From assembly GCF_044324875.1 (NCBI RefSeq), contig NZ_CP172185.1: a stretch of 64,000 nucleotides of DNA, one strand, 5' to 3'. The notes below the pieces were generated by a model that did no database searches, had not been told where the DNA came from, and saw only the letters and a list, made by a program, of their open reading frames with translations. Below are positions 56,816 to 63,508 of this stretch, one piece after another; the stretch's first letter is position 1; every line of letters starts with the position of its first letter. Source of the DNA: Escherichia coli (GTDB taxonomy: Bacteria > Pseudomonadota > Gammaproteobacteria > Enterobacterales > Enterobacteriaceae). Both the position numbers and the translations under genes were made by a program.

Positions 56816-57550
56816 ATGTCCAAACTCGATCTAAACGCCCTGAACGAACTGCCGAAGGTAGATCGCATTCTGGCGCTGGCAGAAACTAACGCCGAACTGG
56901 AAAAACTGGATGCTGAAGGCCGCGTTGCCTGGGCGCTGGATAATCTGCCCGGTGAATATGTACTTTCTTCCAGTTTCGGCATTCAGGCGGCGGTGAGCCT
57001 GCATCTGGTGAATCAGATTCACCCGGATATCCCGGTGATCCTGACCGATACGGGTTATCTGTTCCCGGAAACCTACCGCTTTATTGACGAGTTAACGGAC
57101 AAACTCAAGCTCAACCTGAAAGTGTACCGCGCTACCGAAAGCGCCGCCTGGCAGGAAGCGCGCTACGGCAAACTGTGGGAGCAGGGTGTTGAAGGCATTG
57201 AAAAGTACAATGACATCAACAAAGTCGAACCGATGAACCGGGCGCTGAAAGAACTGAATGCGCAAACGTGGTTTGCTGGCCTGCGCCGCGAACAATCCGG
57301 CAGTCGCGCCAATTTACCGGTGCTGGCAATTCAGCGTGGCGTATTTAAAGTGCTGCCGATTATCGACTGGGATAACCGAACGATATATCAGTATCTGCAA
57401 AAACATGGCCTGAAATATCATCCATTATGGGACGAAGGATATTTATCCGTCGGTGATACCCATACAACCCGTAAATGGGAACCCGGCATGGCGGAAGAAG
57501 AAACGCGTTTCTTTGGCTTAAAAAGGGAATGTGGGCTGCACGAAGGGTAA
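56816..57550 (+). CDS. cysH: Phosphoadenosine phosphosulfate (PAPS) reductase CysH
   Basis: The ORF track starts at 56663, inside the REP. The recognised N-terminus [14 protein letters not shown] begins at the ATG at 56816, preceded by SD gagg. 244 aa ending ECGLHEG. Confidence 0.93.
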
Positions 57551-57722
57551 AATATCGTACCGCTTAATAAACGTCTCTGTCTGAAAAGATGGGGGCGTTT
57601 TTATTTTGCGAGCAGCATTCCTGATTTTAAACGTGAACGCCGCTGGAAGAATTATCAAGTATAGAATGGCGTTGGGTGCTTGAGGCTGTCTGGCGTTAAG
57701 CATTCGCGAGGTTCCAGATGGA

Positions 57723-57777
57723 CAAAAGCCCCAGGCGATATTTCTATCAACCTGAGGCCAGCGTTCGAACCTAAGCA
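57723..57777 (-). ncRNA. Candidate Sok-like antisense RNA (tentative)
   Basis: Minus-strand promoter-like elements are -35 ttgcct (57812-57807), a 17-nt spacer and -10 taacat (57789-57784). A transcript of about 55 nt is predicted, complementary to the hok-leader region. It ends in a weak hairpin plus CUUUUG. No experimental or homology confirmation is possible here. Confidence 0.3.
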
Positions 57778-57815
57778 ATTCGAATGTTAGTCTCTTCTTT
57801 GCAGGGAGGCAAGAC

Positions 57816-57968
57816 ATGCTGACAAAATATGCCCTTGTGGCAATCATCGTACTGTGTTGTACAGTACTGGGATTCACGCTGATGGTAGGCGACTCGTTGT
57901 GTGAGTTGAGTATCAGAGAACGTGGTATGGAGTTTAAGGCAGTTCTCGCTTACGAATCGAAGAAGTAG
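57816..57968 (+). CDS. Hok/Gef-family type I toxin (HokE-like), 50 aa
   Basis: Not in the ORF track because it is under 60 aa. The ATG at 57816 is preceded by strong SD gggagg. The product is [50 protein letters not shown]. It has a single TM helix plus the conserved Hok C...C..AYE periplasmic tail and is very similar to my recollection of HokE. A 12-codon uORF (57784-57822) overlaps the start. Confidence 0.8.
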
Positions 57969-58319
57969 CCACCACGCGGGGGTAAAACCCCGCGTATTGA
58001 ATTGTGATGGTTTGGTCTCCTGCACCCTTTTTTAATTTATATTGTTTATGTGAATATTATGCCTATGTTTATTATTCATATATATTACGGATGAAAATTA
58101 TTTGATTATTCATAATGTGCAAAATGGCATCTGAATCGATCGCAGTTTGGCATTCGAATCGATCATGATTTGGCATCCATCTCCGATCACAGTTTGGCAT
58201 CACAATCGATCACGATTTGGCATGCTTCCGATCATTGATTGGCATCCTGCCAGTCACTCCGGGAATTAACTCTTTTCACCACAGTCTCCATTGCCGTGTT
58301 TAAACCAGTGGAGACGTCA

Positions 58320-59885
58320 ATGTCCAGAAAGAGAAAATCCAGGAGCACTATGGAAACCTGTTTTAAGATCCTTCAGCTCAAGTTCGACAAGAAGCTGACT
58401 AACCGTTGTATCGGACTGACGTTACACATCAGCGCCTCAACCGTTTTTGAGGTTCTTGCCCGCTTCAAAGCCTCTTCTCTGTCATGGCCATTACCTGCTG
58501 ATATATCCCATGACACGCTGGAGAAACTCATTTTTCCGCCCAAAGACACCTTTGCATCAGAGCTTGTAATGCCTGACATGTTGTACTTCGATACGGAAAT
58601 GAGAAAACCAGGTGTGACGCGGCAACTGTTGTGGATGGAATACAAGGCACAGGCGGGTAACAAAGCGATGGGATACTCGCACTTCTGCCGTTGCTACCGG
58701 GAGTGGAAAAAAACGCGACGTCTCTCCATGCGCCAGGAGCATCGTGCCGGCGAAAAGCTTTTTATCGACTTCTGTGGTCCTACGGTTCCTGTTATTAATC
58801 CGGACACCGGTGAGATACGCCGCGTGGCAATCTTCGTGGCCGTAATGGGGGCGTCCAACTATACCTACGTTGAAGCGTGCGAAGGTCAGGACATGATGTC
58901 ATGGTTAAATGCCCACAGCCGTTGCCTGACCTTCCTGGGCGGCGTACCGAAGCTGCTCATCCCCGATAACCTCAGAAGCGCAGTGAAAAAGGCCGATCGA
59001 TATGAGCCTGTCATCAACGACAGTTATCAGGCACTGGCTGAGCACTATGGCACGGTTATCATCCCGGCCCGACCACGCAAACCTAAAGATAAACCAAAAG
59101 CAGAAAACGGCGTCCTCATCGTTGAACGATGGCTTCTTGCCCGCATCCGTAATGAAACCTTCCACACGCTCAGGGCGCTGAATGCGCGCCTTAGGGAGTT
59201 ACTGACAGACATGAATAACCGGCCAATGAAGGGGTACGGCAATCAAACCCGTGCAGAACGCTTCCGCATACTGGATGCGCCAGCACTCTCTCCGCTGCCT
59301 CTGGCACCTTATGAATACACGGAATACAAAGCTGTGAAGGTTGGCCCTGACTACCACGTTGAATATGCCCGTCACTGGTACTCCGTTCCACACGAACTGG
59401 TCGGTCAGCGTCTGTCACTGAAGGCGGGGCAGTCGGTGGTACAGCTCTGGCACAAGGGGCAGTGTGTGGCGCAACATCCGCGCAGCACACATGAATATAA
59501 ACACACAACCAATCCGCTTCACATGCCAGAGCGCCACCGGCAGCACGGGACATGGACACCGGAACGCCTGATCGAGCAGGGAAAACGTACGGGCCCGTCC
59601 ACAGGCCGGGTGGTTGAATCCATGCTGAAGGCAAAACCCCATCCGGAACTGGCTTATCGTGCAGTTCTGGGGCTGCTGGCACTTCAGAAAAAATACGGCC
59701 CGGAACGGCTGGAAAAGGCCTGTTACGTTGCCCTGCACTATAACGCCCCTGACAGACGCTTTATCGACAATCTGCTGCGTCACCATCGGGAGAACCTGGA
59801 GCTTCCATTATCCCGCCAGGGCGAACAACATCCGGCATATGCTTCAGAGCATGAAAACCTGCGTGGTCCGGGCTACTACCACTGA
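58320..59885 (+). CDS. istA: IS21-family transposase IstA
   Basis: The start is placed at the ATG at 58320 (MSRKRKSRS...), preceded by SD ggag. N-terminal HTH and a DDE integrase core region. 521 aa. Confidence 0.85.
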   Translation: MSRKRKSRSTMETCFKILQLKFDKKLTNRCIGLTLHISASTVFEVLARFKASSLSWPLPADISHDTLEKLIFPPKDTFASELVMPDMLYFDTEMRKPGVTRQLLWMEYKAQAGNKAMGYSHFCRCYREWKKTRRLSMRQEHRAGEKLFIDFCGPTVPVINPDTGEIRRVAIFVAVMGASNYTYVEACEGQDMMSWLNAHSRCLTFLGGVPKLLIPDNLRSAVKKADRYEPVINDSYQALAEHYGTVIIPARPRKPKDKPKAENGVLIVERWLLARIRNETFHTLRALNARLRELLTDMNNRPMKGYGNQTRAERFRILDAPALSPLPLAPYEYTEYKAVKVGPDYHVEYARHWYSVPHELVGQRLSLKAGQSVVQLWHKGQCVAQHPRSTHEYKHTTNPLHMPERHRQHGTWTPERLIEQGKRTGPSTGRVVESMLKAKPHPELAYRAVLGLLALQKKYGPERLEKACYVALHYNAPDRRFIDNLLRHHRENLELPLSRQGEQHPAYASEHENLRGPGYYH

Positions 59886-59901
59886 CAGAAGGAACAACAG
59901 T

Positions 59902-60657
59902 ATGAGTGATAACCTGTTAAACAAACTGACCCAACTGAAACTCCCGGCGATGGCCGGGAGCCTGATACGGCAGCGGGAAACGCCTCAGACCTACGACGAA
60001 CTGTCGTTCGAGGAAAGGCTGACGCTGCTGGTTGATGACGAGCTTCTGAGCAGGGAAAACAGCCGTGTGGCACGGTTGAGAAAAAATGCCGGCCTGAAAT
60101 ACCAGGCAACACCGGAAGGGCTGCGCTATCCGGCCTCAAGAGGTCTGCGGGCTGAACAGATGAGAGAACTGCTGAACGGCCACTACATAACCCACAGGAA
60201 AAACCTGCTGATAACCGGTCCGACAGGATGTGGCAAGAGCTGGATAGCCAATGCGCTGGGCGAACAGGCATGTCGACAGAAACACAGCGTCCGGTACTGT
60301 AGAACCGGGCGATTACTGGAACAACTGGCTCAGGGACGTGTTGATGGCAGCTGGCTGAAATATCTGAAACAGTTGCAAAAAATACAGGTTCTAATCCTGG
60401 ACGATCTGGGGCTGGAACAGTTAAGTAACGCCCAGTGTAATGACCTTCTGGAGCTCATAGAGGATCGTTACGGACAAAGCAGCACGATAGTGGTAAGCCA
60501 GTTCCCGGTAGATAAATGGCATGGTCTGATGGAGAACCCAACAACAGCAGATGCCATCCTGGACAGACTGGTACATAACTCACACCGAGTGGTCCTTCAG
60601 GGAGAGTCACTGAGGAAAAATCCCCCGGTAGTGGAAAGCAGCGAAAAAACGCGTTAA
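59902..60657 (+). CDS. istB: IS21-family helper ATPase IstB
   Basis: The ATG at 59902 (MSDNLLNKLTQLKLP...) lies 16 nt after the istA stop. Walker A GPTGCGKS and Walker B VLILDDLG. 251 aa. Confidence 0.85.
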   Translation: MSDNLLNKLTQLKLPAMAGSLIRQRETPQTYDELSFEERLTLLVDDELLSRENSRVARLRKNAGLKYQATPEGLRYPASRGLRAEQMRELLNGHYITHRKNLLITGPTGCGKSWIANALGEQACRQKHSVRYCRTGRLLEQLAQGRVDGSWLKYLKQLQKIQVLILDDLGLEQLSNAQCNDLLELIEDRYGQSSTIVVSQFPVDKWHGLMENPTTADAILDRLVHNSHRVVLQGESLRKNPPVVESSEKTR

Positions 60658-60808
60658 AAAGCGGTAGAAAAAGTTAAGTTCCCGGTTGATCGAATGGATG
60701 CGAATCGCTGATCGGACTTCGATGCCAATCCGTGATCGAATAGAGCGGAATACGCACATAATGTAAATATTTTATTGAACGATATATATCACAGATAATT
60801 TTTAATAT

Positions 60809-63508
60809 ATGCGTAAATATCCTTTAAGTTTACTGAAGGATAAAAATATTGTGACTTTTTTTGATTTCTGGGGAAAAACCCGACGCGGCGAGAAAGACGG
60901 GGGCGACGACTATCACCTTCTTTGCTGGCATTCGCTGGATGTAGCCGCGATGGGCTATTTAATGGTTAAAAGCAATTGCTTCGGGCTGACTGACTATTTT
61001 CGTCAACTAGGTTTCGCTGATACGGAGCAGGCAGCACAATTTTTCGCCTGGCTATTGTGCTGGCACGATACTGGAAAATTTGCCCGCTCTTTTCAGCAAC
61101 TTTACCTGCACCCACAACTCAAGGTTCCGGAAGGCGCAAGAAAGAATTACGAAAAGATCTCTCATTCAACGCTGGGCTACTGGCTGTGGCATCATTATTT
61201 AAGTGAATACGAAGAATTGCTTCCTTCATCTTCACTCTCTCCGCGCAAACTTAAACGGGTGATGGAGATGTGGATGCCCATAACTACCGGGCATCATGGT
61301 CGCCCGCCTGACCGTATTGATGAACTGGATAATTTTCTGCCTGAAGACAAAGCTGCCGCGCGAGATTTTCTTCTTGAAATCAAACCACTGTTTCCGCTCA
61401 TAGAGATCCCCGCATTCTGGGATGATGATGAGGGCATTGAACTTATAAAACACCTTTCCTGGTATATCTCTGCAACCGTCGTGCTCGCAGACTGGACGGG
61501 TTCGTCAACGCGATTTTTTCCACGCGTCGCACACCCAATGGATATTAAAGGTTACTGGCAGAAAACTTTAGTTCAGGCTCAAAACGCCTTAACCGTCTTT
61601 CCTCTAAAAGCAAAAGTCGCGCCTTTCACCGGAATTAATACGCTGTTTCCTTTTATTGAGAATCCGACACCGTTACAGCAAAAGGTGCTGGATCTGGATA
61701 TCAGCCAGCCAGGGCCACAGTTATTTATTCTGGAAGATGTGACTGGCGCAGGTAAAACGGAAGCGGCGCTTATCCTGGCGCACAGGTTGATGGCTGCGGG
61801 TAAAGCGCAGGGTTTGTTTTTTGGCCTGCCAACAATGGCAACGGCCAATGCCATGTACGATCGACTGGTCAAAACCTGGCTTGCTTTCTATTCGCCAGAG
61901 TCCCGCCCCAGCCTGGTGCTGGCACACAGTGCCCGAACATTAATGGACCGCTTTAATGAATCACTCTGGTCCGGTGATTTAGTCGGGTCAGAAGAACCGG
62001 ATGAACAAACGTTCAGTCAGGGATGTGCGGCCTGGTTTGCCGACAGTAACAAGAAGGCGCTACTGGCTGAAATTGGCGTCGGCACGCTGGATCAGGCGAT
62101 GATGGCTGTGATGCCGTTCAAACATAATAATCTGCGGCTTCTGGGACTGAGTAACAAAATCCTGCTGGCTGATGAGATCCATGCCTGTGACGCTTACATG
62201 TCATGCATTCTTGAAGGGCTGATCGAGCGGCAGGCGCGTGGCGGAAACAGCGTCATTTTGCTTTCTGCCACGTTATCTCAACAGCAGTGCGACAAACTCG
62301 TTGCTGCCTTTGCGCGTGGTACAGAGGGCCAGCAAGAAGCTCCGTTCCTGGAAAAGGATGATTACCCCTGGCTGACGCACGTTACGAAATCCGATGTGCA
62401 TTCACACCGGGTAGCGACGCGCAAAGACGTTGAGCGTAGCGTGAGCGTGGGTTGGCTTCATAGCGAACAAGAATGTATTGCGCGTATCGAATCGGCAGTA
62501 AGTCAGGGGAAATGCATCGCCTGGATCCGGAATTCTGTCGATGACGCTATTAAGGTTTATCGTCAGTTGCTTGCCCGCGGCGTCATTCCTGCTTCCAGCC
62601 TTTCTCTGTTTCATAGCCGCTTTGCTTTTAGCGATCGCCAGCGAATTGAAACGGAAACGCTGGCACGCTTCGGTAAAGAAGATAGCTCACAGCGTGCCGG
62701 AAAAGTCCTCATTTGTACTCAGGTCTTAGAGTCGAGCGTTGATTGCGATATGGACGAAATGATTTCCGACCTGGCCCCTGTTGATTTGCTGATCCAGCGA
62801 GCGGGGCGATTACAGCGGCATATCCGCGATATTAATGGTCAGTTAAAGCGTGACGGAAAAGACGAGCGTTCCCCTCCTGAATTGCTGATTCTGGCCCCCG
62901 TCTGGGACGACGCTCCAGGTGACGAATGGTTCGGCAGTGCCATGCGTAACAGTGCATATGTCTATCCCGATCATGGACGAATCTGGCTGACGCAGCGTGT
63001 ACTGCGTGAGCAAGGCGCTATTCAAATGCCACACGCAGCCCGCCTTCTTATTGAATCAGTCTACGGTGAGGACGTGGTAATGCCGGAAGGATTTGCCCGC
63101 AGCGAGCAGGAGCAAGTGGGCAAATATTACTGCGATCGCGCAATGGCTAAAAAGTTTGTGCTGAACTTCAGGCCTGGCTATGCCGCCAATATCAACGATT
63201 ACCTTCCGGAAAAGCTGTCGACACGTCTGGCGGAGGAGTCTGTTTCCCTGTGGCTGGCTACCTGTATTGCCAGTGTGGTGAAGCCTTATGCCAACGGTGC
63301 TCACGCATGGGAAATGAGCGTTGTCAGAGTGCGTCGAAGCTGGTGGAAAAAACATCGGGATGAGTTTTCTTTACTGGAAGGGGAAGCGTTCAGGCAGTGG
63401 TGCATTGAACAGCGGAAAGATCCGGAGATGGCAAACGTGATTTTAGTTACCGATGACGAAAGTTGCGGGTATTCGGCTATGGAAGGATTGACTGGCAAGG
63501 TTGGTTGA
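60809..63508 (+). CDS. cas3: Type I-E CRISPR-associated nuclease/helicase Cas3
   Basis: 899-aa ORF. HD-domain motifs (HSLDVAA, WHDTGKF, TGHHG) and SF2 helicase motifs (GAGKTEAAL, ADEIHACD, SATL, QRAGRLQRH). It clearly differs in sequence from K-12 Cas3. An alternative GTG start at 60851 (SD aagga) aligns better with the usual FWGK N-terminus. Confidence 0.9.
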   Translation: MRKYPLSLLKDKNIVTFFDFWGKTRRGEKDGGDDYHLLCWHSLDVAAMGYLMVKSNCFGLTDYFRQLGFADTEQAAQFFAWLLCWHDTGKFARSFQQLYLHPQLKVPEGARKNYEKISHSTLGYWLWHHYLSEYEELLPSSSLSPRKLKRVMEMWMPITTGHHGRPPDRIDELDNFLPEDKAAARDFLLEIKPLFPLIEIPAFWDDDEGIELIKHLSWYISATVVLADWTGSSTRFFPRVAHPMDIKGYWQKTLVQAQNALTVFPLKAKVAPFTGINTLFPFIENPTPLQQKVLDLDISQPGPQLFILEDVTGAGKTEAALILAHRLMAAGKAQGLFFGLPTMATANAMYDRLVKTWLAFYSPESRPSLVLAHSARTLMDRFNESLWSGDLVGSEEPDEQTFSQGCAAWFADSNKKALLAEIGVGTLDQAMMAVMPFKHNNLRLLGLSNKILLADEIHACDAYMSCILEGLIERQARGGNSVILLSATLSQQQCDKLVAAFARGTEGQQEAPFLEKDDYPWLTHVTKSDVHSHRVATRKDVERSVSVGWLHSEQECIARIESAVSQGKCIAWIRNSVDDAIKVYRQLLARGVIPASSLSLFHSRFAFSDRQRIETETLARFGKEDSSQRAGKVLICTQVLESSVDCDMDEMISDLAPVDLLIQRAGRLQRHIRDINGQLKRDGKDERSPPELLILAPVWDDAPGDEWFGSAMRNSAYVYPDHGRIWLTQRVLREQGAIQMPHAARLLIESVYGEDVVMPEGFARSEQEQVGKYYCDRAMAKKFVLNFRPGYAANINDYLPEKLSTRLAEESVSLWLATCIASVVKPYANGAHAWEMSVVRVRRSWWKKHRDEFSLLEGEAFRQWCIEQRKDPEMANVILVTDDESCGYSAMEGLTGKVG

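Follow-up and report, generated by a model that had tools for sequence, protein, structure and literature searches.

The mechanism of the hok/sok (parB) system of plasmid R1 is established knowledge from the work of the Gerdes laboratory. It was taken as the reference for a short locus between cysH and cas3 on the chromosome of Escherichia coli. The locus lies in a stretch of 64,000 nucleotides of contig NZ_CP172185.1 (assembly GCF_044324875.1), and this whole stretch is called the window here. We concluded, with a probability of roughly 0.9, that this locus is hokX/sokX, a chromosomal type I toxin-antitoxin system, and that the allele is intact. The conclusion was carried by the family membership of both the peptide and the mRNA leader, by two alternative pairings of the mRNA and their conservation, by purifying selection on the peptide and by a wide distribution. 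An initial annotation, made from the letters of the window, had proposed a complete hok/sok-type locus at this site. The Pfam match, the full-length match to RF01794 and the tac/fbi pairing across 81 loci all agreed with this proposal. Every feature that the annotation had listed was found where it had been placed or no more than a few bases away.

The locus resembled R1 hok/sok in several ways. It encodes a Hok/Gef peptide, its mRNA can be locked by a pairing between a 5' tac element and a 3' fbi element, and an alternative 5' pairing forms the antisense target. In addition, a short antisense RNA, encoded in cis and made up of a 5' tail and a terminator hairpin, was predicted, and an upstream frame runs into the hok start. 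However, differences were also found. The mok frame of R1 is long and overlaps most of hok, whereas the upstream open reading frame (ORF) of the present locus has 12 codons. The R1 system kills plasmid-free cells post-segregationally, and this role is not applicable to chromosomal hokX. Plasmid Hok peptides were approximately 40-43% identical to HokX, and a search of plasmids for hokX returned only peptides at this level. The sole 100% match was a 4.9-Mb record, which was evidently a misfiled chromosome.

The nearest paralog was hokE/sokE, in line with the term "HokE-like" used in the initial annotation. The amino acid identity was 78% to the HokE of K-12 and 80% to the HokE of other E. coli, and the nucleotide identity was approximately 82% over the coding sequence. 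The leaders of the two loci are built alike, the hairpin behind the stop codon is common to both, and so is a GGCACC-type fbi box. However, hokE is located next to ybdK, and its upstream ATG is in frame and gives a 62-codon extension, in contrast to the 12-codon out-of-frame ORF of hokX. In K-12 and some other strains, the fbi box of hokE is removed by an IS421/IS186-type insertion sequence (IS) in the hairpin. Orthology with hokE was ruled out because the site differs, the amino acid identity is 78-80% and genomes with hokX carry a separate hokE.

The locus is an intact copy of hokX/sokX, which is already described and named and is widespread. It has the position of the known locus, which lies between cysH and cas3 or between cysH and iap, and an identical protein. 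There was no difference in the locus itself, only a strain-specific IS21-family insertion 84 nt downstream. The name hokX was given to the gene first noted in E. coli B, where it is inactivated by an insertion element (PMC7232551). In urinary isolates, hok and sokX adjoined cysH in 90% of cases, and the rest had sokX alone, as in K-12 (PMC12736100). The initial annotation had noted that K-12 has only sokX in the cysH-cas3 interval, and the alignment agreed. K-12 MG1655 (comparison sequence L002, 2501-2770) matched only positions 57568-57818 of the window, with the breakpoint directly after the hok ATG. The K-12 sokX remnant is thus the 5' part of the present locus, and it retains the hok promoter, the leader, the antisense region sokX, the Shine-Dalgarno sequence and the hok ATG. 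In other words, most E. coli still carry a complete toxin-antitoxin locus, and the "orphan" sokX of K-12 is its front half. The allele of the present strain is intact, unlike the K-12 deletion and the alleles split by IS421/IS186. The importance of the locus is small beyond its correct annotation, and it raises no new toxin-antitoxin question. It does illustrate how a 60-amino-acid ORF filter overlooks real genes.

The hokX peptide

The cysH ORF ended at 57550 and was followed by an intrinsic terminator hairpin at 57569-57600. The ATG of cas3 was at 60809, and the locus was found between the two genes. The Rfam model ctRNA_p42d also gave a match at 57567-57609 (26.4 bits, gathering score 50). 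This match was the cysH terminator hairpin and was judged to be a chance resemblance. The features of the toxin gene were as follows.

57805-57809, plus strand: Shine-Dalgarno sequence GGAGG of hokX, read from the sequence
57816-57968, plus strand: hokX coding sequence, 50 codons (50 amino acids), with one transmembrane segment, Cys29 and Tyr46
57951-57954, plus strand: TACG, formed by the Tyr46 codon and the next G, a candidate site of TadA adenosine-to-inosine editing (Tyr46 to Cys)

The 50-codon Hok-family ORF with a strong Shine-Dalgarno sequence, as first proposed, was recovered with full family support. The peptide matched Pfam HOK_GEF (PF01848) with an E value of 5.7e-10 and 39.1 bits against a cut-off of 22, over profile positions 1-42 of 42. 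The conserved Cys-Glu motif of Hok/Gef proteins corresponded to Cys29-Glu30. A chance ORF was ruled out by the Pfam and Rfam statistics. The product was identical to RefSeq WP_000956458.1, which is annotated as "Hok/Gef family protein" and is encoded between cysH and cas3. Identity with HokA was also tried and rejected, since the score against the equivalog model NF007290 of NCBIfam was 53 bits, below the cut-off of 89.

For the comparative analysis, 79 related loci were taken from one-genome-per-species contigs, and 81 distinct mRNA regions were aligned. The alignment covered Escherichia, Shigella, Pseudocitrobacter, Kluyvera, Klebsiella, Citrobacter, Scandinavium and other genera of the Enterobacteriaceae. 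The median ratio of non-synonymous to synonymous substitution rates (dN/dS) of the peptide was 0.13, which indicated purifying selection. The peptide was 100% identical in E. coli O157:H7, Shigella flexneri and Escherichia whittamii. The segment GGAGGCAA at the Shine-Dalgarno sequence was near-invariant. Codons 43-49 showed almost zero synonymous variation, and this points to an extra constraint at the RNA level.

The TACG motif lies in these codons. In the fold prediction, it fell within a 9-nt loop that belongs to a small hairpin at 57942-57965. TadA adenosine-to-inosine editing at the position of Tyr46 has been described for hokC, hokD and hokE, and the resulting Cys46 can bond with Cys29 (10.1101/2025.08.07.668861). 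The placement of the motif in a loop is consistent with TadA editing as a further layer, and by analogy with these genes hokX is likely a candidate for it. The same preprint, which dates from 2026, bears on the toxicity of HokX. A peptide identical to HokX is listed there as construct 46_982 (LRP171) in Table S2. Toxicity was found for 42 of the 45 tested homologs, and the three non-toxic ones are named and do not include 46_982. The text of the preprint thus implies that the identical peptide is toxic on overexpression.

Alternative pairings of the predicted hokX mRNA and the putative SokX antisense RNA

The features of the transcript and of its antisense RNA were placed as follows.

57662-57667, plus strand: putative -10 box TAGAAT of hokX, the consensus in the 81 loci, 6-7 nt upstream of GGGUGC
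57674-58033, plus strand: predicted full-length hokX mRNA of about 360 nt, with the 5' end placed from the -10 box and the start of the Rfam model and the 3' end from the T-run
57674-57681, plus strand: tac-like 5' element GGGUGCUU, with two mutually exclusive partners, the fbi-like element and AAGCCCC
57726-57732, plus strand: ucb-like partner of tac, AAGCCCC, whose pairing belongs to the RF01794 consensus structure
57754-57794, plus strand: Sok-target stem-loop with the loop CCUAAGCAA, helix 3 of the Rfam structure
57784-57822, plus strand: upstream ORF of 12 codons, whose TGA (57820-57822) overlaps the hok ATG as ATGCTGA
57974-57995, plus strand: GC-rich hairpin downstream of the stop codon, with the arms ACGCGGGG and CCCCGCGT around a six-base loop, conserved in all 81 loci
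58014-58033, plus strand: fbi-like 3' element GGUCUCCUGCACCC followed by TTTTTT (T-run 58028-58033), which closes the fold with tac
57784-57812, minus strand: putative sokX promoter, with -35 TTGCCT (reverse complement of 57807-57812), a 17-nt spacer and -10 TAACAT (reverse complement of 57784-57789)
57723-57777, minus strand: predicted SokX RNA of about 55 nt, with a single-stranded 5' tail, a terminator-like hairpin and UUUUGU, both ends being predicted

The leader was recognised by the Rfam hok/sok model. RF01794 matched 57674-57831 over positions 1-157 of 157, with 111.7 bits, an E value of 4.4e-26 and a gathering score of 59. As the match was to the hok-sense strand, what the model describes is the leader overlapped by Sok. 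The proposed 5' tac element was present as GGGUGC. TAGAAT and the Rfam model placed the 5' end of the mRNA nearer to 57674 than to 57668, the approximate position that the initial annotation had given for the tac-like element.

The first pairing joins the two ends of the transcript. GGGUGC (57674-57679) pairs with GCACCC (58022-58027), and GAGGCU (57682-57687) pairs with GGUCUC (58014-58019). The fold-back pairing that had been proposed was found by folding, since this long-range helix closed both the minimum-free-energy fold and the centroid fold of 57668-58033 (z-score -2.5). The six core pairs of tac and fbi were formable in 81 of the 81 loci. Variation was limited to changes from G-C pairs to G-U wobbles and one double change. 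The hairpin expected after the stop codon was located as well, at 57974-57995.

The second pairing joins the same 5' element to AAGCCCC. When a nascent transcript of 70 nt was folded, GGGUGCUU paired with AAGCCCC, which is the consensus pairing of the Rfam model. Four of the seven pairs, those of GGG and the G of GGGUGC with the four C's, were formable in 78-81 of the 81 loci. The double change was found in locus L080, where a C-G pair had become U-A. The C-to-U change on the 5' side was matched by a G-to-A change in the fbi box and also in the ucb-like box. This compensation in both boxes is predicted if one 5' element has two alternative partners.

The leader structure as a whole was also conserved. 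In the alignment, 81% of the cells of the Rfam leader structure were paired, versus 35-50% in controls in which the partners were slid by 1-3 columns. Twenty pairs had changed on both sides, and the covariation score was 0.19 versus at most 0.08 in the slid controls. For the Sok-target stem-loop (helix 3), 85% of the cells were paired and four pairs had changed on both sides. In addition, the in-silico loss of 35-40 nt from the 3' end caused the 5' domain to refold. The analysis thus showed that both pairings are present and that evolution has conserved them.

On the minus strand, the elements proposed for a Sok-like RNA of about 55 nt were found as expected: TTGCCT, the 17-nt spacer, TAACAT, the hairpin and UUUUGU near 57723. 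Both promoter hexamers were conserved in the alignment. The predicted SokX folded with an energy of -21.4 kcal/mol and a z-score of -2.46, and the loop CCUAAGCAA of the mRNA was complementary to its 5' tail, as read from the sequence. The SokX sequence was identical in K-12, where the literature names the region sokX. RNA sequencing of enterohaemorrhagic E. coli is reported to have given reads in the sokX region.

The short upstream ORF that overlaps the hok ATG was confirmed. The term "mok-like" that had been applied to it held in part: the upstream frame does end over the hok ATG, but its 12 codons do not make the long overlapping frame of mok. An upstream ATG that opens an ORF into or through the hok start was found in 77 of the 81 relatives. 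In the hokX types, the frame was out of frame with hok and ended at +7, and in the hokE types it was in frame with hok. By chance alone, no stop codon would occur in approximately 60% of stretches of about 11 codons. The upstream ATG coincides with the -10 box of Sok, and the conservation of this ATG is therefore ambiguous. Translational coupling of the upstream ORF to hok is plausible.

A mechanism can be proposed by analogy with R1 hok/sok, from which the transcript ends, the 3' processing, the action of Sok, the coupling by way of the upstream ORF and a cellular role, if any, are taken. The weak promoter with the -10 box at 57662-57667 would produce an mRNA of about 360 nt. In the full-length mRNA, tac GGGUGC would pair with fbi GCACCC, which would keep the mRNA shut, so that it is neither translated nor bound by the antisense RNA. 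Slow trimming from the 3' end would then take off the fbi box. The freed 5' end would swap to AAGCCCC, by which the Sok-target hairpin (57754-57794) would be built and the upstream ORF and the hok Shine-Dalgarno sequence would be exposed. SokX, of about 55 nt and from the opposite strand, would pair through its 5' tail with the hairpin loop CCUAAGCAA, which would block translation and mark the mRNA for cleavage, with RNase III as the enzyme that would cut the Sok duplex. Once SokX is exhausted, the 50-amino-acid HokX would be made and would damage the inner membrane.

Insertion sequences at and near hokX

One insertion sequence was found between hokX and cas3 in the window.

58118-60756, plus strand: IS21-family element (istA, istB) with TG...CA ends, given as context outside the toxin-antitoxin locus

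The ends of the element were set by comparison with an empty site (strain AF40) and with another copy of the element, which is annotated as ISSso4-like. The target duplication was 7 bp, CATAATG, at 58111-58117 and 60757-60763. The element is 84 nt away from the T-run on one side and 52 nt from the cas3 ATG on the other. The 5,426 complete E. coli genomes covered by our distribution searches did not contain the junction of the present strain, so the insertion is strain-specific. It may part cas3 from its upstream control region and could affect cas3 expression.

The closeness of this element raised the question of whether it disables the locus, as insertion sequences do in K-12 hokA, hokC and hokE and in the hokX of E. 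coli B. The precedent of E. coli B, in which an insertion element inactivates hokX itself (PMC7232551), and the short distance to the element both speak for such an effect. However, the element begins beyond the T-run downstream of the fbi box. The sequence before the insertion point was collinear with genomes free of the element, with one substitution, which was in the spacer past the transcript. Because the sequence is collinear and the element is outside the transcript, every element of the hokX mRNA is untouched. The genes of the element are also transcribed away from hok. Moreover, the disabling insertions known elsewhere lie within the hairpin behind the stop codon, at the counterpart of 57990, and cut fbi from hok. 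Disruption by the IS21-family element was thus judged very unlikely. The initial annotation had compared this element with those just downstream of chromosomal hok loci in K-12. It does lie 84 nt beyond the predicted 3' end, but the likeness is superficial, since the disabling elements sit inside the hairpin.

These other insertions were compared with each other. In other strains, an IS421/IS186-type element was found inside the GGGGG-N-CCCC hairpin of hokX, at the equivalent of 57990. The same IS end, CATAAGCGCTAACTTAAGGG, was present in the hokX hairpin (L085, 1900-1925, equivalent to 57974-57990 of the window) and at the homologous site within K-12 hokE (L005, 855-880). In both cases, the toxin gene is cut off from its fbi box. 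The two look like independent events at a hot spot. Approximately 800 genomes retained only part of 57955-58040, and at least some of these were due to an IS421/IS186-type element in the hairpin.

Distribution, decay and the CRISPR-Cas neighbourhood

The hokX coding sequence was present at 95% identity or more in 4,216 of the 5,426 genomes. At least 3,371 of the 5,426 covered 80% or more of 57560-58120 at 93-99.8% identity. The deletion of the K-12 type was found in approximately 1,176 genomes.

This frequent loss and breakage, with the K-12-type deletions and the approximately 800 genomes with a partial 3' segment, is what would be seen if the locus were intact in sequence yet functionally silent, a decaying chromosomal remnant of the kind that the K-12 hok loci are held to be. 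Both the hok and the sok promoters were weak by consensus, which also fits a silent remnant. However, the dN/dS value of 0.13 showed purifying selection on the peptide, and compensatory changes maintained the RNA pairings across genera. The peptide was unchanged in E. coli O157:H7, S. flexneri and E. whittamii, and the preprint (10.1101/2025.08.07.668861) implies that it is toxic on overexpression. Selection, kept pairings, identity across species and implied toxicity are not expected of a neutral remnant. A silent remnant was therefore considered unlikely, although it keeps some real chance of being right.

Several points weigh against an intact and working hokX/sokX. The hokX promoter had no good -35 box and is thus a weak promoter. 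The sokX promoter agreed with the consensus at 8 of 12 positions, below the threshold of 9 of 12 used in the scan, and the consensus promoter scan of the locus called neither the hok nor the sok promoter. Both were kept as putative features because of their conservation and the identity to K-12 sokX. When the 3'-truncated mRNA was folded, tac paired with 57698-57705 and not with AAGCCCC. This fold missed the tac/ucb pairing of the family, so covariation was used as the basis for that pairing instead. A local terminator hairpin before the T-run was not found by the terminator scan or by local folding, and the local fold of the last 41 nt was no better than that of shuffled sequence. The 3' end of the hokX mRNA is therefore a predicted one. 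Four relatives had no such upstream ORF, and 12 codons are far fewer than those of R1 mok. The genome encodes Tyr and not Cys at position 46, and full toxicity may depend on RNA editing. For the present allele, the transcript ends, the Sok RNA, the 3' processing and native killing rest on prediction, and "intact in sequence" need not equal "active".

The position of hokX/sokX directly upstream of cas3 in most E. coli suggested another explanation, namely that the module is functionally tied to the CRISPR-Cas operon, for example by protecting cas-E through addiction or by regulating cas3, and is not an independent toxin-antitoxin locus. Its presence tracks the cas-E1 variant and its absence the cas-E2 variant (PMC3903273), which is consistent with such a tie. 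However, "the hok sok system" was reported in all CRISPR-I arrangements except the K-12-type cas-E2, and the strains that have it include strains without cas-E genes (PMC3903273). Loci of the hokX/hokE type were also found at other locations in related genera, some of them in tandem, and in the window the IS21-family element separates hokX from cas3. A functional tie to the operon in place of an independent hokX/sokX was thus judged extremely unlikely.

CreTA RNA toxin-antitoxin pairs safeguard cas genes in archaea, and they offer a loose analogy to an addiction role of hokX/sokX. In such a role, hokX/sokX might, as an addiction or anchor element, influence which of the cas-E variants beside cysH persists and which gives way to another, or its transcription might influence cas3 expression. 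We regard this as speculation with very little chance of being correct, and the report of hok/sok in strains that lack cas-E genes (PMC3903273) speaks against it. If hokX/sokX did shape CRISPR-Cas in this way, the IS21-family element, which ends 52 nt before the cas3 ATG, would uncouple the two.

Copies in various states were noted among the related loci. In one S. flexneri genome (L082, 1501-1593), the hokX frame was disrupted after codon 31, and E. coli strain ECMA0423 (L084) had only a degraded hokX fragment, both being cases of decay. Tandem pairs of hokX/hokE-type genes, 500-1,200 bp apart, were found in several Klebsiella and Escherichia genomes (L028, L036, L038, L039, L049 and L058). 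In L041 and L051, a frameshifted second copy stood beside an intact one.

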